From NCBI GenBank assembly GCA_044225365.1, contig JBGAIQ010000014.1, positions 1 through 64,000 on the forward strand: a stretch of 64,000 nt of DNA, written 5' to 3'. The DNA is from Planctomycetota bacterium. Its GTDB lineage: Bacteria; Planctomycetota; B15-G4; JADJEK01. Made by a program: the position numbers and the translations under genes. A model generated the notes under the pieces. The model saw only the letters and a program-made list of their open reading frames with translations, was not told the DNA's origin and did no database searches. Shown here in pieces: positions 21,676-59,567 of this stretch (the first letter of the stretch is position 1; each line of letters starts with the position of its first letter).

Positions 21676-22332
21676 GTGCGCTCGGTCCTCACGGAAGTCG
21701 ACGATCTCCTGCGCGCGAGCGGGCCCTATGGCTTCGCGACGCGGGGTGTACCCGTCCTTCGACTCCTCGCCGTCATCCTCATCGGAGGGTTCGTATACGG
21801 CGCGACGATGGGGTCGTATGCCGGGAGGCCGCTGCAGTCGCTGTATTCGGGCTTCAAGGTCCCCCTCCTGCTACTCGGCACCAGTGCGATCGTCCTGCCG
21901 AACTTCTTCGTCCTGAATACGCTGCTCGGACTCCGCGATGATTTCGCGGGCGCCTTGCGCGGAGTCTTCGCGGCCCAATCCGTCGTTGCGGTCACGCTCA
22001 CGGCGCTCGCCCCCGTCACGCTCGTCGGGTACGCGTCGGGCGTCGACTATGCGGGGGCCACGCGGCTCAACTTCGTGTGCTTCGGACTCGCGACGCTCGC
22101 CGGACACCTCGGCTGCGAGAAGTTCTATCGTCCGCTCGTGGAACGCGATCCCAGGCATCAGCTCGCTCGCTACGCGTGGACGGTGCTCTACGTGTTCGTC
22201 GGTGTCCAACTCGCGTGGGTGTTCCGTCCCTTCGTCGGGGATCCCAGGATGCCCACTGCGTTCTTCCGCGCGGATGCGTGGAGCAATGCCTACCTCGTCG
22301 TCTTCCACCAGGTGTTCGGGCTCGGCTACTGA
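21676..22332 (+). CDS. Five-TM membrane protein (Yip1-like), paralog B
   Basis: KVPLLLLGTSAIVLPNFFV; LYVFVGVQLAWVFRPFVGDP...FFRADAWSNAY. Starts 7 nt after paralog A. Confidence 0.82.
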   Translation: MRSVLTEVDDLLRASGPYGFATRGVPVLRLLAVILIGGFVYGATMGSYAGRPLQSLYSGFKVPLLLLGTSAIVLPNFFVLNTLLGLRDDFAGALRGVFAAQSVVAVTLTALAPVTLVGYASGVDYAGATRLNFVCFGLATLAGHLGCEKFYRPLVERDPRHQLARYAWTVLYVFVGVQLAWVFRPFVGDPRMPTAFFRADAWSNAYLVVFHQVFGLGY

Positions 22333-22399
22333 ATCGCGCGATGCAATGCGCGCGGGCGACGCCATTCGATGCGTCGCCCGCGATGTTCGATCGCTTCGC

Positions 22400-22876
22400 T
22401 CAGATCGCGAAGACGGCCTTGAACTTGGTGAACATCGCCGCGAGGGACTTCGCGAGCGAGAACGGTTCGGGATCGGGGTGCGGCGGGCCGCCGAGCGGAA
22501 TCGCAGCCTCCTTGGGCGGGAGCGGCTGCGGATTCAGCGCGACGTCGTCGAAGTGCCCCATGTATTCCATCGCGTAGGTCTTGGGCGGTAGAGGCTGGGG
22601 ATTGAGAGCGACCGCGTCGAGCGGATTCTTCGCGCCACCGATCGTCTTTCCGATCGACGTTCCGATGAGCGGACCGCTGAAGAGGGTTCCGAAGCTCTGC
22701 CACTTCGATGCGGCTTCCTTCGGCGGCAGGGGCTGCGGGTTGATCGCGCGGGGTCCGATCGGATCCTTGACGATTCCGACGAGCGCTTTCGGCGGCAGCG
22801 GTTGAGGATTGAGCGCGCGCGGACCGAGGAGGTCTTTCTTCGCGAACGCCGATTGGGCGAGGGTCTTGAGATTCAT
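22400..22876 (-). CDS. Small protein with four A(L/I)NPQPLPPK motifs
   Basis: AGGAG RBS before ATG 22876; 158 aa. The motif is conserved at peptide level while codons differ synonymously. Confidence 0.8.
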   Translation of the reverse strand: MNLKTLAQSAFAKKDLLGPRALNPQPLPPKALVGIVKDPIGPRAINPQPLPPKEAASKWQSFGTLFSGPLIGTSIGKTIGGAKNPLDAVALNPQPLPPKTYAMEYMGHFDDVALNPQPLPPKEAAIPLGGPPHPDPEPFSLAKSLAAMFTKFKAVFAI

Positions 22877-22953
22877 GGCTTGGCTCCTGGTTCGGAAGCC
22901 TGGTTCTCGGGTCGTGACGCTCGCCGTTGCAGCCTTTCCCGTTCCCCGCGAAT

Positions 22954-24570
22954 TCAACCGCGCTTCACGACGCGCATGCCGGTGAGATCGAAGCGCGCCG
23001 CGCCCTTCTTCGCGCGCAGTTCGACGACGAGTTCGACGAGCCGAGTCTCTTCGAGCACCTCGAACTCGACCTTCGTCGGTTGCCACGGCTTGCCTCCCAC
23101 TTGTCGCGGTGGACCTTCGGCGCCCGAAACGTGGATTCCCATCCCGCTCGCGGGATCATCCGGCAGCGCCTCGACGCCTTCGATCGCCGCAATCGCCTCG
23201 AAGGTGTACTTGCCCTTTGGCAACATCACCTTCTTCCGCCAAGACGCCACGCACGGTTCCTTGCCGCACACGATCTCGTAGACGCGTCGCCCCTTGAAAA
23301 CGGCCTGCTCGATCTTCGGATCGCCGGCCTCGCCATGCGCCGCGAACCCGGTGATGTGCGCCTGTGCCTTGGCGTCGAACGACAGCGTCTTCGGTTCGGG
23401 TCGCCGGATCTGGTCGCGCAGGTTCTTGTCGCGATCCTCGATCCGCGAGATCAACTCCTTCACGCGTTGCTCGTGCTCGCTCGCGAACTGCGGGTCCATT
23501 GCTTTCAAGATGGGTTCGAGCCGCTTCTGGACGGCGCGCGCCTTCTGGGTCGCGCGCTCCTTGAGGTGCAAGGTGAGCACGAGATCGGACAGCGTCTTGC
23601 GATAGCGTGCGCGCCATTCCGGATTGCGCATCACGGAATCAGCGACCAGCGCATTCGGATAGTCGAGGACCGAGAACTCGGGATCCTGGAAGACCTGATC
23701 CATGCCGTGCGCGAGAAAGTAGGCGCGATTCGTCGTCGGCTCGACGTAGAGGCGATAGTTGTTCGTGTTCTGCGCGTAGCCGTCCCAGTGCCCGATCACG
23801 AGTTCCATCGCGACGAAGGTGAGGAAGGCGTCGACATCGAGTCGCTGCTCGATCTTCTGCCAACGCGTGCTCGGATCCTGTTCACGGCAGGCCTCCGCGA
23901 TCGCCGCGAGGTCGCTCTTGTCGTCGACGCCCTTTCCGGTGTCCTTCTCGAGGCCGGCGTCGACCTCCTGGCAGAAACCACCGTCGTAGAGATTGCCCGT
24001 CGGCTTCTGGAAGAAGCGCGCGAGCAGTTGTCGATCGAAGCTCTCCTTCAAGACGTAGAGGCCGAGATCGCGACCGTTCAGCCAGACTCGTGCGTGCGTG
24101 ACGCGCGGAGTCGGCACGCCCGCGGCGCGCATCAGGTCGGAGCACAGATACTCGTCGAGATACGTGTCGTCCTGAACCGAGTTGTTGAGATGGAACTTCT
24201 TCAGATCGTGGAAGCGCAGCTTCTCGTCGAACTTGTCGACGTTGATCGTGAACGCCGGCTTGTCGTCGAGTTCGCGAAAGCTGCCCGCTGCACCCTTCAG
24301 TTTGAGCGCGACGTCCTTGTAGATCGTCTTGTCGTTCTCCTTGAGGGTCGCCTGCACGTAGGTTCGCGCGTCGTTCTTCAGCATCGCGGCTTGATCGTCC
24401 GCCAACTCGATCGCGATCCGCGGAATCTCGCCTTTCTCGAAGAAGGCGTCGCTCGCGTCCCTCGGGCGGTCCTTCGCGAACACGCTCGCTTGCGACGCCG
24501 CCTCCTTCTGCGCGAACGCGAGAGCCGGGACTGCGAGAACGGCGAAGAAGCAGACGCTGCGGAACTTCAC
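22954..24570 (-). CDS. CotH kinase-family secreted protein
   Basis: Signal peptide, LKLKGAAGSFR, KPAFTINVDKF, LNNSVQDDTY..E, GLYVLKE, WDGY..NTNNYRLY, HGMDQ. GTGA overlap with the upstream gene. Confidence 0.92.
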   Translation of the reverse strand: MKFRSVCFFAVLAVPALAFAQKEAASQASVFAKDRPRDASDAFFEKGEIPRIAIELADDQAAMLKNDARTYVQATLKENDKTIYKDVALKLKGAAGSFRELDDKPAFTINVDKFDEKLRFHDLKKFHLNNSVQDDTYLDEYLCSDLMRAAGVPTPRVTHARVWLNGRDLGLYVLKESFDRQLLARFFQKPTGNLYDGGFCQEVDAGLEKDTGKGVDDKSDLAAIAEACREQDPSTRWQKIEQRLDVDAFLTFVAMELVIGHWDGYAQNTNNYRLYVEPTTNRAYFLAHGMDQVFQDPEFSVLDYPNALVADSVMRNPEWRARYRKTLSDLVLTLHLKERATQKARAVQKRLEPILKAMDPQFASEHEQRVKELISRIEDRDKNLRDQIRRPEPKTLSFDAKAQAHITGFAAHGEAGDPKIEQAVFKGRRVYEIVCGKEPCVASWRKKVMLPKGKYTFEAIAAIEGVEALPDDPASGMGIHVSGAEGPPRQVGGKPWQPTKVEFEVLEETRLVELVVELRAKKGAARFDLTGMRVVKRG

Positions 24571-25259
24571 GGATGCGGCTCGATCTCGACGTGCTGGATG
24601 CCATCGAGCTTCATGAGATCGACGAGCACGGCGCCGGCGTCGTTCGGATCGCGGAGGTCGACGTCGTAGCGCGCCTCGATCGCCGTGCCTTGCTTGCTGG
24701 TCGCGATCGCGACGAGGGCGTGAGTCCGTGCGTGACGTTCGAGGCTCGCCTCGAGCAATGCGTCGGGATCGACGCCCAGCGCAACTCGCACGACGAGCCG
24801 ATGCGACGACGCGATCCTTCGACCTCCGCTGTTCTCGAGCGTCCGGGCGAGCGCGTACGCCACCACCGCCACGATCGGCGTCCCGATGGCGCAGACCATC
24901 ACCTCACCGGCACCCGCGGCCATTCCGGCAACGACGGCGAAGATGACGAAGGCCGTATCGCGCGTGTCCTCGACGATCGTCCGAAATCGCACGATCGAGA
25001 GCGCGCCGACGAGACCGAAGGCCCGAGCAACGCTGGAGCCGATCACGATCGCGGTCCACGCGACGAGGACGGTGAGCAGGACGAGCGTGGTGATGAACTC
25101 CGCGAGACGCGCACGCTCCTGTTGGCGCGCCGTGCGGTAGACGAAGGCCACGATGCCGCCGGCGACCAAGGCGAGCGCAAGGCGCGCCGCGATCGCACCG
25201 GATGCCAGTGCTCCAGCTTCTCCGCTTCCGCCGAAGAGACTCGTGAAATCCATCGTCAT
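24567..25259 (-). CDS. DUF4956-family membrane protein with C-terminal ACT-like domain
   Basis: IVIGSSVARAFGLVGALSIVRFRTIVEDTRDTAFVIFAVVAGMAAGAG. ATGA overlap with the VTC gene stop. Confidence 0.92.
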   Translation of the reverse strand: MTMDFTSLFGGSGEAGALASGAIAARLALALVAGGIVAFVYRTARQQERARLAEFITTLVLLTVLVAWTAIVIGSSVARAFGLVGALSIVRFRTIVEDTRDTAFVIFAVVAGMAAGAGEVMVCAIGTPIVAVVAYALARTLENSGGRRIASSHRLVVRVALGVDPDALLEASLERHARTHALVAIATSKQGTAIEARYDVDLRDPNDAGAVLVDLMKLDGIQHVEIEPHP

Positions 25260-26116
25260 CGCCGATTCGAGGGCGCGTCCTCGTCGAACCGTCCGAGGAG
25301 CCGTGACATCGTAGCGCGGTACTTCGACGCCGAGGACAGCACGAGACCAAAGTGTGCGATGAGATGCTTGAACATCGACGGCATCGAATCGTCGAACTTC
25401 AACTCGCAGATCGCCCGGCCGACGAAGGGTGCGACAGGGTCGCCCTCCGCGTCGAACGACCATTCCCGGGTTCGCTGTCCCATGACATTGCGATCGAGCG
25501 TGAGCCGAGACGGACGATTCGGATCGCGCGCAAAGAACGCAGTGCGCTCGTACGAGAGGACGCAGGTGGGCACGAGACCGAGGTCGCACACGGCCCGCTC
25601 GAAATCGTCGCGCGAGGCCGAACCCGACGCGACCTTCGCCGACATCGCGAGCCGGTTTCTCCAGCCCGCTTCGGCGCGCACGCGCAGTTTGCGTACGCGG
25701 TCGCGTCGCCGAAACTTCTCCTCGAGGAAGATGTGACCGCACGCGTCGTAGCGACGCACGCGGTGCTTCTTGTGCTGCATCGTCTCGCTGCGTGAGAAGA
25801 CCGCGAGGTCGTGCGTGTCGAGGTAGAGAGTCGTGGTGCGGTATCGGCCCGATCCCGGGGTCTCGCCGTGAGGGTCGACTTCGAGGTGTGCGCGCGCCCA
25901 TTCCTCGATCTGCGCAGCAACGCCCTCGGTGACGAGGAACTTCAACTCGAACGCCGAGGACGGCTCGTCGCTCGCGCTCCGCTCTCGCAGCGAGGGCGAA
26001 AGCGAAGCCGGCGAATGAGGCGCAAGAGGCGGCTGCAATGGAGGGAGTTCGCCGGCCTCATGGCTGGGCATGGGTCGCGCCTCGTCCGGTTCTGATCGCT
26101 CGCCGTCCGTCGTCAT
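25256..26116 (-). CDS. VTC-domain (polyphosphate polymerase-like, CYTH/TTM fold) protein
   Basis: FELKFLV, YRTTTLYLDT, KHRVRRY, FLEEK, YERTAF, RLTLDRNV, ICELKF, SKY. Start is 26116 or 26071. Confidence 0.9.
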   Translation of the reverse strand: MTTDGERSEPDEARPMPSHEAGELPPLQPPLAPHSPASLSPSLRERSASDEPSSAFELKFLVTEGVAAQIEEWARAHLEVDPHGETPGSGRYRTTTLYLDTHDLAVFSRSETMQHKKHRVRRYDACGHIFLEEKFRRRDRVRKLRVRAEAGWRNRLAMSAKVASGSASRDDFERAVCDLGLVPTCVLSYERTAFFARDPNRPSRLTLDRNVMGQRTREWSFDAEGDPVAPFVGRAICELKFDDSMPSMFKHLIAHFGLVLSSASKYRATMSRLLGRFDEDAPSNRR

Positions 26117-26307
26117 GGTGGGGCCATGCGGTCCTTTCGGCTCGAAAGGACCGCGCGAGTTAGAGGATCGCGTGGGAAAGGTAACGATTGCCGTCGCGAC
26201 TTCGATGCGAGAGCTGCAACTCCTCGAGATTCTCGAAACGGAGGCGGTCCCGGTTCGCACTCCATTGGAAGTTGCAAGGCAGGTCGAGACGTCGTGGAGT
26301 GATTGCC

Positions 26308-29300
26308 GTGGAAGACAGCACGCAAGACCTGGTTCGGCGAGTCGCGATCGTGCACCGCATGGCTCGTGATCTCGCCGGCAACGCGCACGAGGGCGAAGAC
26401 GCGGCGCAGGAGGCATTCGTCGCCGCGATCGAGAAGCCCCCGCGCGAATCGCGTTCGCTGCGAGCCTGGTTCGCGACGGTCTTGCGCCGGAAGATCCTGC
26501 GCTCGAAGCTCGAGCAGTCGTCGCGCCGCACGCGCGAGATGCATGCCGCCGGCACCGAAGAAGGCGCGGATCCCGGCGCGATCGCCGCCGAACGCGACCT
26601 CGTGAAGCTCGTCATCGACGCCGTGTACGACCTCGACGAGCCCTATCGTCGAACGATGCTGCTGCGTTACCTCGAGGATCGCGAGATCGCCGACGTCGCG
26701 CGCGAGCTCTCCGTTCCGAGCGAGACGGTCCGCACGCGGATCAAGCGCGGCCTCGATCGCGTGCGCGCGCGACTCGACCGTGAGCACCCGTCGCGTGCCG
26801 CGTGGCTCGTCCCACTCGTTCGAATCCAAGGGGCCATCGAGACCAGTGCAGTCGTCGGAACCACGATCGGTCTACGCATGGTCGTCGCGGCGGTCGCGGT
26901 GGCCGCAGCGCTCTTCTACGCGAGCGTTCACGAGTTCGATGGCCGCGCGCGCGGAACGGCGGTCCCGCTTCCTCCGCCAAAAGCCCCCGAGCTCGCGATC
27001 ACGGCGAATCCGCAGAGCGTGGAGCGCAACGAAGTCGAGCTGCCGAAGGACGCGGGCGAAGTACTCGATCCGCTCGCGGGTCGAATCGTCGATGCCTCGC
27101 ATCGCCCGATCCCGAACGCATCGCTGCGCCTGCTCCTCGGCGACCTGTCCGACGCGGGAGCCTCGACCTCGGCCCCGTTGCTCACTGCGAAGTGCGATGA
27201 CGACGGTCGCTTCTCCCTGCCCGGGATCTCCGGCCAGGACTACGTACTCGCGATCGAAGCGAAGGGCTTCTCCGCGCGCGTGGTGCCCGTGACGGGCCAT
27301 GCCGACCTCGGCGACGTGATGCTGCGCAAGAGCTTCGCGATCCACGGCGTCGTGCGGGACCTGAAGAACCGCCCGGTCGCGGGAGCTACGGTGAGGTTCA
27401 AGACGGTCCAGAGCGTCTTCTATCGCGAACTCTCGGCACAGAGCGCGAGCGACGGCTCGTATCGCATCGACGACGCGTCGGATCCCGCGAAGGATGCGAT
27501 CCGGAAGGACGCGTGGACCAGCAACTCCACGTCTCAATTCCTGGTCGAGCACTCGGCGTATGCGCCGCTCGAAGTGAACCTGTTCTCCCTCCTCGGATTC
27601 GACGAAGCCGGCGACCTGCGATTCGATCCGTTCCTGACGCGCGGCGCAACGCTCGTCGGAACCGCGATCGACGCGGAGACGCACGAAGGACTTCGCGGCG
27701 CGACGATCACGCTGCGGTCGATCGGTGCGGTCAACCTCATGAACGGCAGCCGATATCTGGAGTACCCGTTCAAGAACCAGGCGCTCGAGACGGCACAGAC
27801 CGACGATCTGGGCCGCTTCTCCATCGCGCGTATCCCGGCGTGGAGTGTCCAGGACATCGGAATGCACTCAGTGGGCGAAGGACAACGTCTCCTCGGCTCT
27901 CTGGACCTCGCGCTTCCCGGATTTGCCGCGATCGACGTGAACCATCTCGCCTCGCAGATCCGCGTCCCCGACGAAGGACAGACGATCGAGTTCGACATCA
28001 AGGCGCTGCCGACGGGCACGCTCCGCGGACGCGTCGTCGATGCGAACGGAAATCCGATCGAGGGCGCGGAGGTCGGAATCGGACTGGATGCGATCTCGGA
28101 CTCCGAGGGTCGCCTCATCGCAACGACACGATCGAGCGGATCGACGACCGACGCGTCGGGCGCGTTCGAGTTCTCCGTTGCGCTCCTGCGCAACCTCGAC
28201 TCGCGCGGCGAATTGTCGGTCAACGGCGAATCGATCGAACCGCGCACTCTTCCCGTCGAAGGCCTGCGCGCAAGCTCGATCCGCGACCTGGGCGAGATCG
28301 CGACGGCGCGGCGAACGAGTCGTCCTCCGCTCGCGCGTCTGCTCGTCACCGACGAAGGCGGGCGCCCGGTGGCGCGGGCGCGGGTCGAGGTCCTCGCCGT
28401 CGACAACGAAACGAACTTCGATGGCCCGGACGCGTGCACGCTGAGGACCGATTCGGCCGGTGAAGCGGTGATGACGTCGATGCGCAACGACCTCGTCGAT
28501 CCTCTCCTGAAGGCGCGAGTCATCGCGAGCGGATTCGAGACGAAGTACTCCGGAGTGTTCAGGGCCGGGGTCGAGAAGCCACCGACCATTCGGGTCGCGC
28601 TCGCGCCTTTGCGAAATCTCTCGCTCGATGTCGAACCCGCCAAGGTGAAGAGTCCGCTCGCGGCCACCATCGAGGTGACGGTGCTCGATGCGACGACGAG
28701 CGAACCGATCGTGCACGTTCATCACCTGTCGGCGAGCGACGGACATGGTCACGGCTGCGACGGCGTCGAGATCTCGCCCGGGGTCTATCGGCTCTCTCCC
28801 ACCGCGCTCGGAGAGTGGTCGCTCTACGTTCGAGTCGAAGGGTTTGCCGCGCACGCGCGACAGACCGTCGTCCTCGACAGCATGGACGCCGTCGTTCCGG
28901 TGACGATTCGCCTCGAACGCGGCGCGAAGCTGCGCGTCCACGTCACCGCGAGCGACGGCAGCCATCTTGCGGGAAACGACGTGTGGCTCGCCCCGCTCTC
29001 GTCCGGGCGGACGCAGACTGCGAAACTCGACGCGAACCAGCGTTTCGAGGCGAGCGGTTTCCGCGCGGGTGAACGCTACGAACTCACGATCGCCGCTTTC
29101 CCGAGCATGAAGTGGTTCACACCGGCGAACAAGTCGCCGATCGTCATTCCCACCACTTGCGAACAAGACCTCGAGGTCCGCGTCGTGCCGAGCGGCTACG
29201 CCTTCGTGACGTCGACGGACCCGCGTCTCGGCATGCCCAGTTCGATCGGGGGAGAGAACGCGGCGATGAAGGAGTTCGATTCGAAGAGCTTCCTCGCCGT

Positions 29301-29481
29301 TCGCGACTCTTCGGGCAACGAGGTCGTTCGGCACGCCTTGTCCCCCTGCACGGGCATCCCGGTCATGATCCCGTACGGCACGTACGTGTTCCGCCTCGAA
29401 GTCTTCGGCGATGCACCGAAGGAGAAGACGATCACGATCGACCGCTCGGACCAGACGAACGTCGAGTTCGACGTCGATTGA
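26308..29481 (+). CDS. ECF sigma factor fused through a TM helix to carboxypeptidase-regulatory-like (Cna-B type) repeats
   Basis: GEDAAQEAF, LRAWF, region 4 VPSETVRTRIKRGL, TM VVAAVAVAAALFY, repeated G.V.D..G.P..GA.V...TD..G.F modules. GGAG RBS before GTG 26308. Confidence 0.88.
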   Translation: MEDSTQDLVRRVAIVHRMARDLAGNAHEGEDAAQEAFVAAIEKPPRESRSLRAWFATVLRRKILRSKLEQSSRRTREMHAAGTEEGADPGAIAAERDLVKLVIDAVYDLDEPYRRTMLLRYLEDREIADVARELSVPSETVRTRIKRGLDRVRARLDREHPSRAAWLVPLVRIQGAIETSAVVGTTIGLRMVVAAVAVAAALFYASVHEFDGRARGTAVPLPPPKAPELAITANPQSVERNEVELPKDAGEVLDPLAGRIVDASHRPIPNASLRLLLGDLSDAGASTSAPLLTAKCDDDGRFSLPGISGQDYVLAIEAKGFSARVVPVTGHADLGDVMLRKSFAIHGVVRDLKNRPVAGATVRFKTVQSVFYRELSAQSASDGSYRIDDASDPAKDAIRKDAWTSNSTSQFLVEHSAYAPLEVNLFSLLGFDEAGDLRFDPFLTRGATLVGTAIDAETHEGLRGATITLRSIGAVNLMNGSRYLEYPFKNQALETAQTDDLGRFSIARIPAWSVQDIGMHSVGEGQRLLGSLDLALPGFAAIDVNHLASQIRVPDEGQTIEFDIKALPTGTLRGRVVDANGNPIEGAEVGIGLDAISDSEGRLIATTRSSGSTTDASGAFEFSVALLRNLDSRGELSVNGESIEPRTLPVEGLRASSIRDLGEIATARRTSRPPLARLLVTDEGGRPVARARVEVLAVDNETNFDGPDACTLRTDSAGEAVMTSMRNDLVDPLLKARVIASGFETKYSGVFRAGVEKPPTIRVALAPLRNLSLDVEPAKVKSPLAATIEVTVLDATTSEPIVHVHHLSASDGHGHGCDGVEISPGVYRLSPTALGEWSLYVRVEGFAAHARQTVVLDSMDAVVPVTIRLERGAKLRVHVTASDGSHLAGNDVWLAPLSSGRTQTAKLDANQRFEASGFRAGERYELTIAAFPSMKWFTPANKSPIVIPTTCEQDLEVRVVPSGYAFVTSTDPRLGMPSSIGGENAAMKEFDSKSFLAVRDSSGNEVVRHALSPCTGIPVMIPYGTYVFRLEVFGDAPKEKTITIDRSDQTNVEFDVD

Positions 29482-29555
29482 CCCTCCTGGTCGCCCTCGC
29501 GACGGCGTGATACTCTGGCGCTTCGTTCCGTCATCCCCGTTCGCATGAGGCCAGG

Positions 29556-31238
29556 ATGCTGTTCGTCCCCACCCTCGTTCTGTTCGCTCTCGCCACGGCC
29601 GACGACGCACCTGCCGCGAAGGTCGACTTCGCGAAGGACATCCAGCCGATCCTCGAAGGTCGCTGCATCGAGTGCCACGGGCCGAAGAAGGCGAAGGGAC
29701 GATTGCGGCTCGATCAGAAGGACTCGGTCTTCCATCCGCCCGGCAACAAGAAGCCCCGTATCGTTCCCGGCAAACCGGATCAGTCGTCGCTCTTCAAGCT
29801 CGTGACGCTCCCGAAGGACGATCCCGACGTGATGCCCGCCGAGGGCGAGAAGCTGACGAACGACCAGATCGCGCTGCTGAAGGCGTGGATCGAGCAAGGA
29901 GCCGTCTGGCCGGACGCGGCGGCGACTCCCGATTCGGCGGGCAAGCCGGCGACTGCGCCGGAGACGAAGACGCCCGAGGGCGCTCCGCCGGCTCATCCGG
30001 ACGATCTCGGCCTGCATCCCCTCAGCGACGCCGAGCGCGCCGCCGAGGACGCAGCGATGGCCAAGATCTCGGAGCGCGGTGGACTCGCGCTCAAGATCGC
30101 TTCGAACAGCGCCGCGGTCGAGGTGAACTTCAGTCTGCTCGGCGCCGACGTCAAGGACGGTGATCTCGCGCTCCTGTCGGGCGTCCAGCACGATCTCATC
30201 TGGCTCAACCTCGCGCGCACGAGCGTCACCGATGCCGGACTCGCGGCGCTCGCGAACCTGAAGGAACTGCGTCGCCTCAATCTCTCGAACACGAAGATCG
30301 GCGACGCCGGCCTCGCCGCGCTGCTCGGCTTCTCGAACCTCGAATACCTGAATCTCTACGGCACCGGTGTCACCGATGCCGGAATCGCTGCGCTCGCGAA
30401 GCTGCCGAAATTGCGCGATCTCTACGTCTGGCAGACGGCCGTCACGGATGCCGGAGCGAAGGCGCTCGTCGGCGCGAACTCGAAGCTACGCGTCGATCGC
30501 GGCGTGTACGAGCCGGCGAAGTCCGAACCGATCGCGGAGCTCGTCAAGCCCGCGCCGATCAACAAGACCTGTCCCGTCTCCGGCAAACCGGTCGACGCCA
30601 ACGTCACCTCGACGGTCGACGATCAAGTGATCGCATTCTGCTGCGCCAACTGCAAAGCCGAGTTCGACAAGAATCCGCAGGCCCTGCTCGGGAAGATCGC
30701 GGAGTTCAAGCCCAAGGGCGCCCCCGCGGCACAGGCGGCCGCAACGGTCGCCCTCGCCTCGGACGAGTTCTTCGCGGGCAAGCTCACGGATCTCGACGGC
30801 AAGGAAGTCGACCTCGCGAAGTACAAGGGCAAGGTCGTGCTCGTCGTGAACACCGCGAGCACGGGCCGCTACGCGGGTCAGTTCAGAGGGCTCCAGCAGA
30901 TCTACGCCGACTATCAGGGCAAGGGCTTCGAGATCCTCGCGTTCCCGAGCAACGACTTCGGCAATCAGGAACTCGGCGATGCGAAGGCGATTTCGGATTT
31001 CGCCCGGCGTCAATTCGGTGCGCAGTTCACGCTCCTGTCGAAGACGAGCTTGAAATCGGATTCACCGCACAGCGCTTGGCTCGGGAAGATCGGCAACGCC
31101 GGTGGCGGATTGCCGACGTGGAACTTCACGAAGTATCTCGTCGCCAAGGACGGCAAGACCGTTCAACGATTCCTCCCGAAGGTGACCCCCGACGGCGCCG
31201 AGATGCGCGCGGCGATCGAGCAAGCGCTCGCGCGCTGA
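29556..31238 (+). CDS. Secreted fusion: planctomycete cytochrome c + LRR + YHS-like + glutathione-peroxidase-like domain
   Basis: VDFAKDIQPILEGRCIECHG..MP..WIEQGA; LxxLNLxxTxVTDAG repeats; CPVSG...FCCANC; YKGKVVLVVNTAS..FPSNDFGNQE..WNFTKYLV. Confidence 0.9.
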   Translation: MLFVPTLVLFALATADDAPAAKVDFAKDIQPILEGRCIECHGPKKAKGRLRLDQKDSVFHPPGNKKPRIVPGKPDQSSLFKLVTLPKDDPDVMPAEGEKLTNDQIALLKAWIEQGAVWPDAAATPDSAGKPATAPETKTPEGAPPAHPDDLGLHPLSDAERAAEDAAMAKISERGGLALKIASNSAAVEVNFSLLGADVKDGDLALLSGVQHDLIWLNLARTSVTDAGLAALANLKELRRLNLSNTKIGDAGLAALLGFSNLEYLNLYGTGVTDAGIAALAKLPKLRDLYVWQTAVTDAGAKALVGANSKLRVDRGVYEPAKSEPIAELVKPAPINKTCPVSGKPVDANVTSTVDDQVIAFCCANCKAEFDKNPQALLGKIAEFKPKGAPAAQAAATVALASDEFFAGKLTDLDGKEVDLAKYKGKVVLVVNTASTGRYAGQFRGLQQIYADYQGKGFEILAFPSNDFGNQELGDAKAISDFARRQFGAQFTLLSKTSLKSDSPHSAWLGKIGNAGGGLPTWNFTKYLVAKDGKTVQRFLPKVTPDGAEMRAAIEQALAR

Positions 31239-31266
31239 CGCTCGCAACGATAATTTCCTTCCGCGC

Positions 31267-31345
31267 TGGGACCGCCGGGCTCCAGCCCGGCACTTCTCCC
31301 TCGAGCAGCGTCCATCCGGAGCCGGGCGCACGCCCGCCGGTCCCA
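31267..31345. repeat. Inverted pair of 25-nt REP-like palindromes (REPIN-like)
   Basis: tgggaccgccgggctccagcccggc (31267-31291) and the reverse complement of 31321-31345 match at 20/25 positions. Each carries an internal hairpin. Confidence 0.65.
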
Positions 31346-31485
31346 CGAACATCCCCACGATCGCGGTCTCGCTTTTCTTAAATCTTGGTCATTCGCCGCG
31401 TGCGGAAATCGCACGTCGGCGCTTCCCACGACCCCGCCTCTTGCTGCAAAATGCCGGGTCAACGTCCACGTTCGAGGTGAATGAG

Positions 31486-33042
31486 ATGGCGAACGGTCGA
31501 CAGGTCCTCGTTGCAGTCGTTCTCGCGGTCGCAGGCGGCGGAATCGCCGCGAAACACTTCTACATCGACAACCCTCCCGCGCGCGTCGCGAAGGCGCTCG
31601 CCGAGACGTTCCCGGTGCACACGGCGGACTCGGCGGCGAGTGACGTCGCGATCTACACGCACCCGTCGGATCCTGCGAAGAGCCTGATCCTCGCCACCGA
31701 CCGGCGCAAGGGAATCGCGATCTACGACCTGAAAGGCAGCGAAGTCGACTTCGACGCGATCGGCACGGTCACGGACATCGACCTCCGCTCCAACGTCAAG
31801 CTCGGCGATCGCGAGATCACGCTCGTCGCCGTCGCGGCGGGCGACAAGAAGGACCTCCAACTCTTCGAACTGAAGAACGAGAAGCCCTATCTCCATGCGC
31901 TCGACGGGGGCTCCTTCCATCACGACGACATCCAGGCCGACGACGTCTGCCTGTATCGGAATCCCAAGACCGGCGAGGCGTCGGTCTACCTGATCGGGCG
32001 TGAGCGCGACGTCGTCGCGGAAGCGAAAGCCGGCCTCGCCCAGCTCAAGAAACTCGCGACGCTGACCTCGAGCGAGTCGGACAAGAAGAGCAAGAAGGAC
32101 GAGAAGAAGGAGAACAAGGTCGTGGCCCCCGTGGGCGACGTGCCGCCTGCGCCTACGACGTCGAATCCGACGTCCGAACCGACGACTACGCCCGCGCCTG
32201 CAGCGGGCGAGAAGTCCGAGCCGGCGAAGACCGAGGGCGCGGAGAAGTCGGACAAGAAGAAGCACAAGGACGGCTCCTCCTCCGAATCGGACGCTGCGAA
32301 GTCGTCGAAGAAGGAGAAGAACGCCGAGCACGCCAAGGCGGACTCGCACGCGAAGAACGACAAGAAGAGCGAGAAGAAGGACAAGAAGGCGCAGGAGTCG
32401 ACGAAGCTCTCTCCTGAGGCCGAGAAGCTCGCGAAGATCGCGACGAGCAAGGACAACGAGAAGAAGGCGCGCGGCGTGTTCGCCGTTCAGATGCGCCTCG
32501 GCGTCGGAAGCGACAACGCGCTCGCGTTGACCGAATCTCGCCGCATCAAGCTCGAAGGCAAGTCGGAAGGTTCCGTCGTCGACGACGAGAACGGCACGCT
32601 CTTCGTCTCCGAGGCGAAGAAAGGCATCTGGAAATTCCAGGCCGATGGCGGCAAGGACACCGTCGATGTCGGAACCCTGATCTGCAAGGTTGGCTTCCCG
32701 AATCCGCTGCGTCCGGATGTCGAAGGGATCGCGCTCTATCGCGGCGAGAACGGCGCGGGATATCTCGTCGCCGCATCCGAAGGCAGCAAGGACTTCGTCG
32801 TGTTGAAGCGCGCGGCACCCTACGAATACGTCGGTCGCTTCAAGATCGAAGGCAACGGCACGGTCGACGCCGTCGACGACTCCGGCGGACTCGCGGTCGC
32901 GAGTGGCAATTTCGGCGGCGAACTCGGCAGCGGTGTCGTCGTCCTGCAGGACGAGAAGAACGAGAACGCGTCGGGCGGCGTCGAGAACCAGAACTTCAAG
33001 ATCGTGCCCTGGTCCGAGGTCGCGAAGACGCTCCAGCCGTGA
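31486..33042 (+). CDS. Beta-propeller phytase-like protein with a low-complexity insertion
   Basis: AIYTHPSDPAKSLILATD..G..IYDL.G, EGSVVDDE, DVEGIALY..GYLVAAS.G, QNFKIVPW. K/E/S/A/P-rich insert at about 32010-32475. Confidence 0.85.
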   Translation: MANGRQVLVAVVLAVAGGGIAAKHFYIDNPPARVAKALAETFPVHTADSAASDVAIYTHPSDPAKSLILATDRRKGIAIYDLKGSEVDFDAIGTVTDIDLRSNVKLGDREITLVAVAAGDKKDLQLFELKNEKPYLHALDGGSFHHDDIQADDVCLYRNPKTGEASVYLIGRERDVVAEAKAGLAQLKKLATLTSSESDKKSKKDEKKENKVVAPVGDVPPAPTTSNPTSEPTTTPAPAAGEKSEPAKTEGAEKSDKKKHKDGSSSESDAAKSSKKEKNAEHAKADSHAKNDKKSEKKDKKAQESTKLSPEAEKLAKIATSKDNEKKARGVFAVQMRLGVGSDNALALTESRRIKLEGKSEGSVVDDENGTLFVSEAKKGIWKFQADGGKDTVDVGTLICKVGFPNPLRPDVEGIALYRGENGAGYLVAASEGSKDFVVLKRAAPYEYVGRFKIEGNGTVDAVDDSGGLAVASGNFGGELGSGVVVLQDEKNENASGGVENQNFKIVPWSEVAKTLQP

Positions 33043-36900: not shown

Positions 36901-39900
36901 TCAGTGAACATCGAGTACGCCGAACCACCGCTCGCTGCCCGCCGCTTCACCGACCACTTCGAGGAGAGCGCCTTCTCCCTTCTTCAGCCAGGAGTCCGCG
37001 ATCTCGATCGTGAGGACTCCCGTCGCGTCCTCCGAATTCTTCGCCTGCACGTACCACGTCATCACGACGTCGCCGTCGTTGCGACTCACCGTCGCGTCGT
37101 CGATCTTCACGTCGAACTTCATTGCCTCGCGGCCGTTCACGAGCAGGGTGAATCCCTTCCCCGGTTGCGAGTTCCAGCCCATCGCCGCAGCGAGCCGGAA
37201 CCGCATCTTCGCTCCCTCGCGCAGGGTGTCCGGGACGATCGCGGTCTTCCACGCCACGCGCGAGCGCCCATCGGTCTGTCGACAGAAGCGCATCGGCGTG
37301 GGCCCGAGGAAGCTGTTCTGCGCGGGAAGCACCTGTCCATCGAGGATCTCGAGACAGCCATTGGCGCTGCCCTGGAGGAACTTCGCCCTCGCGTCGGCAC
37401 ACTCGGCTTCCGTCAGCGCGTCGAGTCTCTTCGGTGCGGTCTGCAAGAACGCGATGAGATCGGCGACTTCTTGATGCGAGAGTCCGAGGACGAGCCCTTC
37501 CGGCATCAGCGAGCGGCCCGTTGCATGGAACGCCAGGATCTCGCTGCGTGGGATCGATTCGTGAACGCCGCCCTGGAGTCGCAGGTTGATCGCGGTGCTC
37601 GATTCGCCCTCGACGATTCCGAGCAACTTGCGATGTTCGCTCGTTTCAAGATCGTAGGCCTGATACCGCACGTCGACGGCTGCGTTCGGATCGACGATCG
37701 AGAGCAGAAGGTACTGCGACGAACGATCCGTCAGTCCCGAGAGGTCCGCCCCCACTTCGTTGCCGCGGCCACGGAACGAATGACACGAAGCACAGAGATG
37801 ATCGAAGTGCGCCGCGCCCCGCGCGCGATCGCCCGCGAGCGCGAGAACCGGCGTGAGATTCTCGAGTACGGCCTTTGCCGAGGACGGCTTGCCGAAGAGG
37901 GTCACCGCACGCGGGCCGACGCGTGGATCCGGATTCGACACGAGCCGTTCGCGACGCAGCGCGTCGATGGCGGAGATCGGTACGTGGCGATTCTCGATCG
38001 CGTCGAGCAGGACGACACAGTCGATGTCGCGCTCGAGGAAGCGATCGAGCAATTCGCCCCGCAGATCGGGGCCGAGCGACGAGAACGCGTTCAGCAGGAT
38101 CGTGAACGATGCTGCTGCATTCGCATCGAAGAGCCGCAGCATCGCGGCTCGCTGCAGGATCGGATCGATGCTGGGGTCGAGGAGATTGCCGAGGAGGGCG
38201 AGGTCCTGCACGCGGTTCGCAGGAGTCCGCACGAGCATCTCGCACGCCGCCGCTCGCTCTTCGAGCGGACGCCCCGCATCCGCGACGATCGAATACGCCG
38301 AGTCGACGAGCCGCGCGATCGTCTCCTCGTTCGCTTGCGGCGTGGACGAGTAGACGTTTGGCAGATGCGAGATGTCGACGTGGAGATGGTCGCACGTCTC
38401 GAGCGCCCTAGCGAGCATGCGCCACGGCACCGGCCGGCGTTCGGCGCCGTCGTCCGAACGCACGCTCGAGATGACGCTCGAGAGCGCCAGCGCGGCGAGC
38501 AGATTCTCGTTCCGACCCTCCGCCGTCGCGCACATGCCCTCGGCGAACGTCTCGAACCGATCGAGCACGTCGATCGATTCGCCCGGCTCGAACTTGGGGA
38601 GCTTGAACATGGGCGCGAACTTCTTGGCGTCGATCGTCGAGAGCAGGAGAGTGACTCCGTAAGGGTCCACCGCGACGGTATTGGCAACGCCGAGGCCGCC
38701 CATCCAATCCGGTCGCAGTGCGCGGCACTCCGGCAACGTCAGCAGGACCTGCCTCGCGACGACGAAGTCCTGAGCGTCCTTCGCGAGCTGCGTGACGCGT
38801 CGCTCGAGTTGCCCGCGTGGGTTCTTCGCGAGGCGCGGCTCCGCGAGCCGGACCGCGTGCGCCCTCACCCACGATTCGTTCGACAGGATCGCGAAGTCGA
38901 GCATCGGGTCCGTGAGTCCTCCGAGCTGATCGAGCGCGTACATGGCCTGCACTCGCGCCGCGGCGGACGCGTCGCTCGCAATGATTCCGGCGAGCAACGA
39001 AGCGGGAGCCGCATCGTTTCGCCGCAGCAATTCCGCGTGCGCGATGTCGCGAAGCGCGCCGTTCGTCGAGCGCATCGCGGCGACGACGTCTTCGATCTTC
39101 GCCGTCGCGAGGTCGGGCACGTGCTTGCGATGATCGGCCGCCCGCAACACTCGCCAGATCCTTCCGAGATGTTCTCCCGCGCGGATGTCGATGTGCGCGA
39201 GTTGTTCCGCGCCGACCCACCGCGGATGCTCGATGAGGAAACGCGCCATGTCGACGACGTAGAGCGCGCCGTCCGGTCCCGCCTTCGCCGCCACCGGGCG
39301 AAACCAGTTGGAGTGCGACGCCATGAAATCGCGGTCGAGCGCGTCCTCGGGGCGGGTTGCCGAATACGTCGCGCCGTTGCGCTTCAGCACGTAGCGCATC
39401 ACCACGTTGCCGACCGGCTCGCAGCAGAACGCATTGTCGCGATAGTCGTCGCCGAGCGTGTCGTCGCGGTAGATCTCGAGTCCGCACGCCGACGTCACGT
39501 GGTTCTCGTGGTCGTAGTCGTTGTAGCGCTGGAGATGCGGACTGATCGGGAACACGCGCCGCGGGTCGCCGTCCGCCGCTTCGATCGCGATGTGATTGCC
39601 GGGCGGCGGCGAGAGGAAGGGATTGCGCGCGAGATACGCATCCTCGAGCGGGAAGTCGAATACGGGAATGTTGGAGTCGCAGCCGAACCACTCTCCGAAG
39701 TCGTTCCGCGCGCGGCCCTGTTGCGAGATACCGGAGATCGCCTCGATCTTCCCCCGCTTCGGATCGATGCGGAAGTCGCGGCCGTGGACGTCGACGACCT
39801 CGCCAGTCTTCGTCGACGTGATCGCACCGCCGAAGAGACCGCTCGCGCCGTAGATCCAGCCATCGAGTCCGAGACGCAGAGAGTTGGGGCGCGCTTGCTC

Positions 39901-41652
39901 GTTCTCCGCCGGAAAGCCCGTGAACAGCACCTCGCGCGAGTCCGCGATCCCGTCGCCATCGACATCGCGTGCGAAGAGGATGTCGGGCGCCGCGCACACG
40001 AGGACGCCCCCGCCGTAGGCCATGACTCCGGTCGGGAACGCGATGCCGTCGAGGAACACGCTGCTCTGGTCGAAGACGCCGTCGTCGTCGACATCGACGA
40101 GTCGCCGGATCCTTCCGCCCGGTTCGAGATTCCCCTTCATTCCGTTCGGATAGTCGCGCATCTCAGCGACGAACATCGCGCGATCGGGCGCGAAGTCGAT
40201 CGCGACCGGCGATTCGACGAGGGGCTCGCTCGCCGCGAGCTCGACGCGCAGGCCGCGGTCCACCTCGATCGCGGCGAGCGCTTCCTCGGGCGACGGCGGC
40301 GGCGGGAATTCGGCGAGCGATACGTCGCTCACGAACGAGAGCGGCAGTTGCGCTCGCACCGCGCGGACGATGATGTCCTCGACGACGGGCGCGAACTTCG
40401 TCGGCTGCCGGTAGTACGTCATCGCGCTCTCGCCCTCGTAGCCTCCCTCCTGGAGGATCCTTCGCGACGGGATGTAGCACGGCAGATCGTTCGAATACGC
40501 TGCGAGGAACAGCTTCTCGCTCTTCAACTCGCGCTTCAGGCGAAGCGCGTAGTCGACGACGACCTCGCCCGCGAGGAAGGCCATCGCGAGCTGCTCGCCG
40601 AAGCGAATCGTCTCGACGGGATACGGGATCGCATCGGGAATGGGTTCGTTCGCTTCGAGCTTGCCGAGGAAGTACTCCGCGTGATGTGCGACGGCGCCGC
40701 CTTGCTTCTTCCGCGCCTCCCACTCCTCGCGCGTTCGCGGCACGCCGAACGGCAAGGTGATCGAGTCGAACCGCGTCGTCGGAGCGGCATCGATCGGCGC
40801 GAGGTTCGTCGCAGCGAGTCGCTCGATCTCCGCCGCGAGCTCACGACCGTGCTGCTGGCTGTTCTCGAGCGTTCCCCCGGGCGACGGATTCTGATCCGCA
40901 CCACAACCGATCGCGATGAGTGCGATCGAGCCGGGATGCGCCGTCTCGAGCGTCTCGGACGCATAGCCGGCCCAATCGCCACAGCAGAAGTTCTGCGCGG
41001 GGCCGAGGGTCGTGCAATGGCAAGCGTACGCCGCGAGCGTCGCGATGCGCTCCCCCTTCGCGTCGCGCACGAGCAGCAGCGGCACGTCGTGATCCACGGG
41101 GCCGCCCTTCGTGCGGCGATTCGCGCCGAAGCTCGCTTCGCCGTGTCCGAAGGCGAGTGTCGCCGGCTGCATCGCCGCGAGCGCGTCGTGGATCGCCGAT
41201 GCCGCTCCCTCGATCACGTGCTCCGTGTATGCACCGATCCGTTCGACCTGATCCTGCGGCAACTCCATCCCGAACATGTTCGGGATCGCGCTGGCGAGGT
41301 GCGGCGCATTGTGATCGTGCGTCGCGCAGAACGCGAGATGATCGCGCGCGATGCCGTCGCTTCCGAGCGCCTTCTTCGCAATCGCGTCGCAGACCACCGC
41401 GGGCAATCCGATCGCGTCGATCGTGACGACGACCACCGCGCTCGTGCGATCCTCCCCCATCGCGAGCGCCCGCGCGAAGATCGGCTGCTCGATCCGATCG
41501 CTCTCGGTCGTCCGCGCCGCGTAACCGGAGAGCCGAATCGGCGTCGTCGGCGAGACGTCGACCTTCGCCGCGCCGGCGAGCAGCGCCGCGTGAGCGAAGG
41601 TCGCTCCCAACCCCCACGCCGCGATCATCGAGACAGGCAGCAGCGTACGCAT
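36901..41652 (-). CDS. Neutral-ceramidase-N-like domain fused to a PVC-type membrane-bound dehydrogenase / heme-binding CxxCH protein
   Basis: [31 protein letters not shown]; [26 protein letters not shown]...[29 protein letters not shown]. Confidence 0.92.
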
Positions 41653-41727
41653 GGCGACCTCCGACGAGAACGCAGGCCGCCGATCGTATCCGAGATTCCC
41701 CGGCCCCGTAACGCGGCTCGGTGTTCG

Positions 41728-41783
41728 TGGGACCGCCGGGCTTCAAGTCGGTCCCCTCCTCACTGGGAGCGCCGGGCTCCCAG
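41728..41783. repeat. Two further degenerate copies of the tgggaccgccgggct REP-like motif
   Basis: tgggaccgccgggcttcaagtcggtccc and ctgggagcgccgggctcccag are both hairpin-forming and share the 5' part of the 31267 element. Confidence 0.55.
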
Positions 41784-59092: not shown

Positions 59093-59567
59093 CTCGACTC
59101 CCCTGAGGATTCGCACTTCTCCCGAACCTTGGCGCCGGCGAAGCAGCGGTTCGATGTACGAATTGAACGTCGAGATCCGAAATTCGTCAAGAGGGCTCCT
59201 CTGGCGGCGGACGCCATAGACGCGATGTGGAGCAGGCGTCCTTCGCGATCGATCGAGGGATTGGACATTCATGGAGATGCCGCGTGGAGGAGCGGCGAAG
59301 CGATTTCGCACGTAGGAGGCTCCGCGAACGAACGGGCCGAACGCGAGACGCTTTCGTATCGTGTCCCGCATCGAGTACGTCGCGGCAACATCGCGTCCGC
59401 CATACTTCTGACCGGGAATCCGAATGACCGTTCACGAGGTGGTGCAGTTACCAACGAACACGCAGAATCGTGAACGGTCACTTCGAGTTCGGTGAGATCG
59501 ACGCCACCGAACGGTCGGACGCCGTTGCCCACTCCCTTCCCGGGTCGACTTCGATACCCTCTTGCGC

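Follow-up and report, generated by a model that had tools for sequence, protein, structure and literature searches.

We analysed the first 64,000 nucleotides (nt) of contig JBGAIQ010000014.1 from a Planctomycetota bacterium (assembly GCA_044225365.1), the whole of which is hereafter called the window, and in which three overlapping genes on the reverse strand encode a VTC-domain protein, a DUF4956 membrane protein and a CotH-family kinase with a predicted signal peptide. We propose that this trio constitutes a self-contained module, consisting of a VTC-DUF4956 core pair and an exported CotH enzyme, and that polyphosphate export is its best explanation, a reading to which we assign a probability of about one in three. 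That the genes form a functionally coupled, matrix-related module with a VTC-DUF4956 core is highly probable; the full mechanism of export and phosphate donation is tentative and lies between doubtful and possible.

The VTC gene (25256..26116, reverse strand; 286 amino acids (aa) if translation starts at ATG 26116) ends in CGG CGA TGA, and its TGA (25258-25256) overlaps the ATG (25259-25257) of the DUF4956 gene (24567..25259, reverse strand; 230 aa) in an ATGA (25256..25259). The DUF4956 gene in turn ends in CAT CCG TGA, whose TGA (24569-24567) overlaps the GTG (24570-24568; GTG AAG TTC) that starts the CotH gene (22954..24570, reverse strand; 538 aa) in a GTGA (24567..24570). A first-pass annotation of this DNA had reported both junctions, and direct reading of the sequence confirmed them. 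All three products matched Pfam above the curated cut-offs: VTC (PF09359; E 2.3e-26, 93.2 bits against a cut-off of 23, aa 56-273), DUF4956 (PF16316; E 1.3e-11, 45 bits against 30.6, aa 36-150) and CotH (PF08757; E 1.6e-37, 130 bits, aa 92-383). NCBIfam held no model for any of the three. AlphaFold2 (AF2) models further support the DUF4956 and CotH assignments, as does Foldseek for CotH. The window has a GC content of 63-68% and numerous spurious open reading frames (ORFs) that overlap genuine genes; the GC content at third codon positions (GC3) of the VTC, DUF4956 and CotH genes (0.79, 0.82 and 0.84, respectively) is the same as that of other window genes. The three genes are real and translationally coupled.

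The trio recurs well beyond this genome. Scanning one genome per species (GTDB set) with an alignment of 40 DUF4956 sequences (A1; the window protein and its 39 closest database homologues) gave at least 596 loci, such that the DUF4956 gene is carried by at least 596 species-level genomes; the best 80 loci were kept with 7-kb flanks and, as the best-scoring of the set, are biased towards the DUF4956 subfamily of the window. They come from Bacillota (32, including one 'Tenericutes' metagenome-assembled genome (MAG)), Planctomycetota (21), Acidobacteriota (11), Verrucomicrobiota (5), Chloroflexota (Caldilineae; 3), Actinomycetes (2), proteobacteria (2), Bdellovibrionota (1) and Bathyarchaeota (1), and the trio spans about ten phyla. 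VTC and CotH were counted by iterated profile searches over all ORFs of the 80 loci. VTC was found in 71/80 and lies directly adjacent to DUF4956 on the same strand in 68/80 (65 upstream, 3 downstream), and CotH occurs within 7 kb in 67/80. This count, which the first-pass annotation had called for, bears out its statement that the trio recurs in bacteria. The most common order is VTC-DUF4956-CotH (43/80), followed by CotH-VTC-DUF4956 (12/80) and CotH-DUF4956-VTC (3/80); other orders make up 10/80, VTC and DUF4956 stand without CotH in 7/80, and DUF4956 stands alone in 5/80. The pairing of VTC, DUF4956 and CotH is far beyond chance.

Several features point to VTC and DUF4956 as the fixed part of this arrangement. 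Where VTC lies upstream (65 loci), the nearest in-frame DUF4956 start, chosen by a heuristic, overlaps the VTC stop in 25 loci and falls within -16 to +27 nt of it in 56. Pairwise identities across 30 loci of the Gram-negative type gave a Spearman correlation of 0.79 for VTC and DUF4956, 0.47 for DUF4956 and CotH, and 0.41 for VTC and CotH, but the pairs are interdependent, and common ancestry raises each of the three values. Moreover, the window CotH is 49% identical to one partner CotH and only 12-23% identical to the other 38 aligned, whereas the window DUF4956 is 42-55% identical to its 39 closest database homologues; one and the same core is therefore combined with two or more deeply separated CotH subfamilies. 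This pattern fits a fixed VTC-DUF4956 core with an exchangeable exported enzyme, as judged from the sequences. A single VTC-DUF4956 fusion protein (505 aa) was seen on one contig and is possibly a frameshift artefact at the overlapping junction. Clustering of all other ORFs of at least 100 aa revealed no recurrent neighbour in the Planctomycetota, Acidobacteriota and Verrucomicrobiota loci, and thus the trio is autonomous there. Two loci that lack CotH carry something else in its vicinity: in a Bathyarchaeota MAG (L067) a lamin-tail-domain protein lies between DUF4956 and VTC, and in Sediminibacillus terrae (L072) a Cthe_2159-family carbohydrate-binding protein lies downstream of DUF4956. These variants hint that the core may serve other exported partners.

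The VTC protein is a putative Vtc4-like polyphosphate polymerase of the triphosphate-tunnel fold family. The window sequence alone matched no PDB sequence; a profile made from 47 bacterial VTC homologues of the related loci (A2) retrieved the catalytic domain of yeast Vtc4 (3g3q) at E 4.1e-25 and the inactive paralogues Vtc2 and Vtc3 at 1e-11 and about 1e-10, respectively. In the available part of the structural work on yeast Vtc4, triphosphate is held by K200, R264, R266, K281, R361, K458, S457 and Y359 and Mn2+ by E426, with K458 the single one of these positions that differs in Vtc2 and Vtc3 (10.1101/2023.01.27.525886). Counting along the A2-profile alignment in the native numbering of 8i6v_E, window residues K59, R119, R121, K134, Y189, R191, E238, S264 and K265 correspond to K200, R264, R266, K281, Y359, R361, E426, S457 and K458 of Vtc4. 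All nine are therefore kept in the window protein (9/9), and each is invariant or at least 90% conserved in the 47 bacterial homologues. At the K458 position the inactive paralogues have Ile or Leu, and the window protein has Lys (K265).

The window VTC has no transmembrane segment, VTC is the only domain that Pfam detects in its 286 aa (there is no SPX domain), and its first ~55 aa form a hydrophilic stretch with abundant Pro and Ser and no signal peptide. The protein is predicted to be cytoplasmic, and the first-pass description of a cytoplasmic VTC enzyme with intact motifs holds on both counts. Two starts are candidates: ATG 26116, which comes first in frame after the upstream region, and an ATG 15 codons downstream of it. 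A motif (L/M)-S-P-S-(L), at about aa 38-46 of the window protein and some 15 residues before the first strand of the VTC domain, is present in many homologues from Planctomycetota, Acidobacteriota and Verrucomicrobiota. Its Met is probably the true start in several of these, judging from the alignment, and so the window VTC may start later than ATG 26116 or bear a conserved N-terminal tag. Compared with the eukaryotic VTC complex (Vtc4/Vtc3 or Vtc2/Vtc1), the bacterial enzyme has a homologous catalytic tunnel domain on the cytoplasmic side and is likewise genetically tied to a small multi-helix membrane protein. However, it has neither SPX, nor a fused DUF202 transmembrane domain, nor a Vtc1-like subunit; it is paired with an unrelated membrane protein that has five helices and an ACT-like domain, its target would be the periplasm or the outside rather than the vacuole, and it carries Glu at the position of yeast Thr198, to which we return below.

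The DUF4956 protein belongs to a large family. Relatives scored at E<=0.001 number 2326, the best of which are 45-58% identical to the window protein, and the closest that bear a source name are labelled Planctomycetes. Within A1 the window protein is 42-55% identical to its 39 homologues, all 40 members match PF16316, and the stretch ARAFGLVGALSIVRFRTxVEDTRDTAFVIFAVVxGMAxGAG is exceptionally well conserved. The AF2 model (pLDDT, the predicted local confidence score, 85.3) contains five helices (20-44, 49-73, 77-95, 99-116 and 120-143), in agreement with the first-pass description of a protein with several transmembrane segments, followed by a beta-alpha-beta-beta-alpha-beta domain at 152-228 that is ACT-like. 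Mean counts of Lys plus Arg over the 40 sequences are 0.33 for the N-terminal tail, 2.98 for loop 1, 0 for loop 2, 3.0 for loop 3 and 0 for loop 4, after which comes a basic linker. The predicted topology thus has the N-terminus outside and the C-terminus inside, and by the positive-inside rule the near-invariant loop R91-F-R93-T..D98-T-R100-D-T and the ACT-like domain would be cytoplasmic, on the same side as VTC.

A Foldseek search of the DUF4956 model against PDB gave nothing at E<=0.001, and the transmembrane part matched nothing informative. Weak matches (E about 0.01-0.04) were to ribosomal protein S6 and ferredoxin-like or ACT-like domains, with the C-terminal domain of MgtC (7qa5) at rank 48. 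Pfam MgtC (PF02308) was matched below its cut-off by 12 of the 40 A1 members (best E 0.00099), the window protein giving no match at E<=1. Several relatives carry the JGI label 'YhiD', and the ESM Atlas returned DUF4956 clusters only, in one of which 19% of members also carry MgtC. The protein therefore shares with MgtC/SapB/YhiD an apparent plan of five transmembrane helices and a cytoplasmic ACT-like domain, as indicated by the AF2 model, the Lys plus Arg counts and the weak fold matches. It differs in that all of its MgtC matches are below the Pfam cut-off and in having its own invariant motif, ARAFGLVGALSIVRFRTxxEDTRDT. We know of no MgtC that partners with a polyphosphate enzyme.

The third protein is predicted to be exported. 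The N-terminus of the window CotH, MKFRSVCFFAVLAVPALAFA followed by QK, is a Sec-type signal peptide (aa 1-20; 24511..24570, reverse strand) with cleavage after AFA, and it coincides with low pLDDT in an AF2 model that is otherwise confident (pLDDT 91.6; below 60 only over the first ~26 residues). Among related ORFs, fragments included, a crude heuristic found a signal peptide or anchor at the CotH start in 59/74, which agrees with the first-pass annotation of a signal-peptide-bearing CotH. The Gram-negative-type CotHs have A-x-A sites followed by Gly/Pro-rich linkers, and the clostridial CotHs have an N-terminal membrane anchor.

The kinase domain (aa 92-383; 23422..24297, reverse strand) was delimited by Pfam, the subfamily alignment and Foldseek. 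Its model matched Bacillus cereus CotH (5jd9) at E 2e-18 with a TM-score of 0.81 normalised to the target, and the sequences matched at E 1.3e-7 with ~21% identity. The subfamily of the window CotH is large and full-length, the top 120 matches being 46-61% identical and covering 78-100% of the query. Its invariant positions include K90, K92, G93, K125, H261-W-D263-G-Y, N270, N271 and G289-M-D291-Q, together with an NNY motif; the invariant basic residues are K90, K92, K125, K175, R185, R273, R320, R324, R380 and R445. In B. subtilis CotH, the catalytic Asp is D228 and the metal-binding Asp D251, according to the available part of the published work (PMC7821199). D263 of the window protein aligns with the DGF Asp of B. 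cereus CotH, and D291 (HGMDQ) is the probable equivalent of the conserved P-[HW]-D Asp, from which two alignments displace it by two residues. The catalytic residues thus appear to be largely intact.

Beyond the kinase domain the AF2 model shows a beta-sandwich (aa ~400-538; 22957..23373, reverse strand) that has no Pfam match. Foldseek matched it at E 1e-5 to 4e-4 to PDB entries for a hyaluronan-binding module (4d0q), for carbohydrate-binding modules (CBMs) CBM4-2 (1k42) and CBM61 (2xom), and for members of CBM35, CBM16 and CBM22, such that the modelled domain resembles carbohydrate-binding modules. The window protein shares with the spore-coat Ser/Thr kinase of Bacillus (5JD9/5JDA) the kinase fold and, by alignment, the probable catalytic DG[FY] Asp. 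However, the Bacillus enzyme acts in the mother cell, with ATP, on coat proteins (PMC7821199, available part), whereas the window protein is predicted to be exported and carries the CBM-like domain. The window CotH likely acts outside the cytoplasm on a polysaccharide or a matrix component, and not on a spore coat.

The genomic context of related loci also points to the matrix. In Clostridia the trio is followed by a BcsA-like synthase with GT2 and PilZ domains in 22 loci, by an 808-aa protein without a Pfam family in 20, and by a protein of ~400 aa with a weak, sub-threshold HEAT-repeat match (E 1.9e-5 for the representative) in 19; MBOAT and AlgX/DHHW-like proteins are additionally encoded in some loci. 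Upstream of the trio, 7 loci encode a Cache-GGDEF protein. This clostridial downstream gene set, which is found within loci L043-L077 (e.g. L065 9315-11657, L052 6374-8797 and L058 11279-12472), looks like an uncharacterised, possibly acylated, cellulose-like exopolysaccharide system. Moreover, an Rfam search placed a cyclic di-GMP (c-di-GMP) riboswitch of class I on the same strand directly 5′ of VTC in 9/32 Firmicute loci (L050, L052, L058, L062, L063, L066, L068, L076 and L079), with scores of 60-73 bits against a gathering score of 35. The same search found it in none of 10 Gram-negative-type loci.

Published accounts already place the trio in such a setting. In the available parts of their reports, Whitfield et al. 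report that in streptococci and clostridia pelDEA(DA)FG is contiguous with a set of accessory genes, comprising cotH, a 'poly-phosphate polymerase' gene, DUF4956 and DUF4832 (bioRxiv 10.1101/768473, PMC7112168). They further describe a diguanylate cyclase/phosphodiesterase (DGC/PDE) gene in place of DUF4832 in bifidobacteria, and suggest that CotH might regulate Pel via protein phosphorylation (bioRxiv 10.1101/768473). The cassette of Streptococcus intermedius (SIR_1594/1593/1592) comprises the same three families in one operon, with a CotH predicted to be secreted and a DUF4956 orthologue described as an MgtC transmembrane domain with an intracellular ACT domain (PMC12345266, available part). 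It differs from the window locus, where no pel-type genes and no DUF4832 were found among 35 ORFs scanned over 64 kb, and its CotH ends in FN3 rather than in a CBM-like domain. In addition, the available part of the published work reports no synteny outside Pel loci, whereas in our loci the trio is found on its own in Planctomycetota, Acidobacteriota and Verrucomicrobiota and next to BcsA-like synthases in Clostridia. A recurrent link thus joins the trio to c-di-GMP control and to synthase-dependent exopolysaccharide systems, namely Pel in the published operons and BcsA-like ones in the present loci.

What was already known is therefore each protein family and the gene set as a Pel-operon accessory cassette. 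New are how widely the module is distributed and that it is autonomous away from Pel loci, its occurrence with BcsA-like synthases and c-di-GMP riboswitches, the predicted DUF4956 topology and the carbohydrate-binding-like CotH domain. The statement in the first-pass annotation that no functional characterisation was known is close to correct: a search of the open-access PMC and bioRxiv literature (main texts) found no enzyme assay or other biochemistry of any bacterial VTC protein, but the trio has been described in print and its genes deleted. The same literature contained no model of polyphosphate export by VTC and DUF4956 or of polyphosphate as a CotH donor, and no mention of c-di-GMP-riboswitch control of the trio. 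Three further papers name DUF4956 or the gene set, but just incidentally or within tables.

We therefore considered how the three proteins might work together. VTC, acting as a Vtc4-like polymerase at the inner face of the membrane together with DUF4956, would make polyphosphate from ATP. A DUF4956 oligomer would take up the chain and deliver either the polymer or phosphoryl groups derived from it to the other side of the membrane. There, in surroundings poor in ATP, CotH would use the polymer or phosphoryl groups to phosphorylate a glycan or matrix target, and the ACT-like domain of DUF4956 may take the regulatory role that SPX domains have in yeast. We infer each of these elements, namely polyphosphate synthesis, VTC-DUF4956 contact, translocation, the use of polyphosphate as a donor by CotH and a glycan or matrix acceptor. 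There is a precedent for the first steps in the yeast VTC complex, where a Vtc4-type enzyme can couple synthesis to membrane transit (10.1101/2023.01.27.525886, available part). In its strongest form the trio would be a bacterial minimal VTC machine, in which a Vtc4-like polymerase seated on a DUF4956 oligomer threads polyphosphate out of the cell, an exported CotH uses the polymer instead of ATP on exopolysaccharides or matrix proteins, and the whole is switched by c-di-GMP in Clostridia; in all these particulars together, this is doubtful. The broader idea of polyphosphate export feeding an exported kinase is plausible, and it accounts for why the genes of a cytoplasmic, ATP-consuming polymerase and an exported kinase have stayed together across phyla, separated only by that of a small membrane protein. 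A complex prediction for VTC 50-286 (A2) with DUF4956 (A1) scored 0.00 against a mark of 0.32, was run without controls and weighs neither way.

Several observations weigh against this export model. The first-pass annotation had cast DUF4956 as the translocation channel, and this role is not supported: as judged from sequence and model, the protein is MgtC-like in architecture and not a relative of the yeast Vtc1/DUF202 channel subunits. Pfam DUF202 (the Vtc transmembrane domain) was matched by 1/40 A1 members at E 0.044, and the VTC complexes 7ytj and 8i6v were absent among the Foldseek matches listed for the model. Inside the DUF4956 helices no basic residues were found except at the helix ends, nor was any pore-like feature. 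MgtC, moreover, is known as a regulator and not as a pore or transporter. The genetics of S. intermedius point the same way, as far as the available part of that study goes: deletion of CotH gave less Pel and less aggregation, deletion of DUF4956 gave more Pel yet less aggregation, and deletion of VTC was wild-type-like, with no aggregation or Pel phenotype (PMC12345266). Since the CotH and DUF4956 deletions shift Pel in opposite directions and the VTC deletion does not shift it, the phenotypes are not those predicted by a strictly linear VTC -> DUF4956 -> CotH pathway, and the simple linear scheme first suggested for these genes does not fit them. The export model is thus weakened by the lack of a pore feature or yeast-channel homology in DUF4956, by its regulatory nearest relative and by these discordant genetics.

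Further points on the same side concern the donor, the loci and the enzyme. We know of no CotH that uses polyphosphate. The characterised CotH kinases use ATP, in the available part of the published work (PMC7821199). In the window itself, a Pfam scan of the 35 ORFs found no exopolysaccharide synthase next to the trio, and an Rfam scan found no element, including no c-di-GMP-I aptamer. CotH is absent from 13 related loci, in 6 of which a contig end truncates the flank, and the flanks of the other 7 are complete. Among the 9 loci that lack VTC, the upstream flank is intact or informative in 8 and contains unrelated genes, such as those for peptidase S9, secretin, DUF481 or FtsK. The 7 full-flank loci without CotH and the 8 without VTC indicate that the parts are able to work apart, and the bias of the 80-locus sample must be added to this. 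Lastly, the position of Thr198 in yeast Vtc4 is occupied in bacterial VTC by an invariant Glu (E57), part of an E-x-K motif. We take this Glu to be part of the ExExK motif of hydrolytic CYTH enzymes, and therefore the chemistry of VTC is not fixed by sequence alone, such that triphosphatase or another tunnel-enzyme activity is possible.

The strongest alternative, for which a real though tentative case can be made, is that polyphosphate stays in the cytoplasm. DUF4956 would then serve as an MgtC-like membrane anchor or regulator; through its ACT-like domain it would respond to a metabolite and thereby adjust VTC, a synthase encoded nearby or phosphate signalling, while CotH would work outside on its own with another donor (e.g. 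released ATP), sharing the operon only through a biofilm or matrix programme. The MgtC-like architecture of DUF4956, its weak MgtC matches and the 'YhiD' label all favour such a role, as do the differing or opposed phenotypes of the three S. intermedius deletions (PMC12345266). The authors of the S. intermedius work, in the available parts of their texts, themselves suggest that polyphosphate may stay cytoplasmic (preprint 10.1101/2024.04.20.589940) alongside their MgtC/ACT description (PMC12345266). Moreover, c-di-GMP control and synthase neighbours would explain co-expression without any physical pathway. However, a purely regulatory arrangement sits less easily with the adjacency of VTC and DUF4956 in 68/80 loci and their overlapping codons, which are also seen in phyla without a neighbouring synthase. 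It also leaves unexplained why an exported enzyme lies beside a cytoplasmic polymerase in 67/80 loci, and what would serve as the phosphate donor of the exported kinase.

VTC might instead be a triphosphatase, a polyphosphatase or another triphosphate-tunnel enzyme, forming a signalling or phosphate-handling pair with DUF4956, which we consider unlikely. In its favour are the invariant E57 opposite Vtc4 Thr198, the absence of any bacterial VTC assay from the literature searched and the lack of a PDB match for the window sequence alone. On the other hand, the window protein retains the nine Vtc4 substrate residues, among them the Lys by which active Vtc4 differs from the inactive Vtc2 and Vtc3, and its Pfam match is to VTC, with none to any CYTH model at E<=0.01.

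It is less likely again that CotH is not a protein or glycan kinase but some other phosphotransferase, or a binding or anchoring protein that, for example, attaches or retains polyphosphate on a surface polymer. The CBM-like C-terminal domain and the ten invariant basic residues would suit such a function, and the second catalytic Asp is offset by two residues; against this stand the CotH kinase fold (TM-score 0.81) and the invariance of the HWDGY and NNY motifs and of D291 in the subfamily. Mere coincidence or drift of the local operon, with the three genes having no function in common, has nothing in its favour but the loci without one partner, and is effectively refuted by an association kept over about ten phyla in two gene orders with no other gene conserved around the Gram-negative-type loci.

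The surroundings of the trio in the window were also inspected. The VTC gene is separated from a divergent ORF by a short intergenic region (26117..26187; ORF reading and Pfam), within which, or inside the neighbouring ORF, the promoter of the trio presumably lies. A scan of 22000-26600 for promoters and terminators found no promoter-like and no sigma-70-like site, and one terminator-like site, on the wrong strand and fewer than in shuffled sequence. The divergent ORF (26188-29481, forward strand; 1097 aa) has an N-terminal extracytoplasmic function (ECF) sigma factor with regions 2 and 4, a hydrophobic segment, four CarboxypepD_reg-like repeats and Big_1. It is an apparent fusion of a sigma factor with a large extracytoplasmic domain and could regulate the adjoining operon.

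Downstream of CotH, at a distance of 77 nt, lies a candidate fourth gene (22400..22876, reverse strand; 158 aa), whose product contains the motif (A)LNPQPLPPK four times and no signal peptide. Its GC3 is 0.81 from the ATG onwards and 0.47 upstream, and AGGAG lies 7 nt before the ATG. In a library of 1.84 billion proteins, 235 cluster representatives, mostly of 65-250 aa, match it at E<=1e-3 via the repeat units, and it appears to belong to a family of short repeat-bearing proteins that has no name. The NPQPLPP repeat protein was considered as a conserved component or substrate of the module but was not counted in it, the motif being present in 0/80 related loci. A reading of the locus as anti-phage defence was rejected, PADLOC having matched none of the four proteins.

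Other genes of the window belong to Pfam families that are common in Planctomycetota (PSCyt1, DUF1579, Sigma70_ECF and DUF7133). A beta-propeller phytase (31186-33042, forward strand; Pfam Phytase, E 1.5e-51) lies 5 kb from the trio and is a second phosphate-related gene nearby; beside it (29511-31238, forward strand) a planctomycete cytochrome c domain is joined to leucine-rich repeats and glutathione peroxidase in a fusion protein. Further away, an ORF of 1613 aa (36901-41742, reverse strand) combines a ceramidase-like N-terminal domain with DUF7133 (E 2.4e-135) and a cytochrome c domain. At 55944-58991 and 58502-59431, both on the reverse strand, lie a gene that combines a Ser/Thr protein kinase with an FGE-sulfatase (formylglycine-generating-enzyme-like) domain and, preceding it, a planctomycete-type ECF sigma gene, and a second FGE-sulfatase fragment occupies the start of the window (1-672).

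If the export model is correct, it bears on how kinases work outside the bacterial cytoplasm, to which a polyphosphate donor would be a general answer. Animal secretory-pathway kinases (the Fam20 family and POMK) also act outside the cytosol, some of them on glycans, with ATP that is imported into the Golgi. To our knowledge there is no ATP pool outside the bacterial cytoplasm, and, unlike in the setting of Fam20 and POMK, we know of no Golgi-like ATP supply for the bacterial periplasm or exterior. The module would, if export is real, also be a candidate route to extracellular polyphosphate that does not depend on PPK. In the available part of a 2026 preprint, PPK-independent extracellular polyphosphate is reported from the Bacillus cereus group, where its pathway is called unknown and no VTC4 homologue is found (PMC13484657). 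Since that group is said there to lack a VTC4 homologue, the trio would be a second, separate candidate route. Moreover, the trio bears on the role of accessory genes in Pel and cellulose-like exopolysaccharide operons. Even if export fails, the module still marks a conserved link between polyphosphate enzymes and matrix biogenesis.

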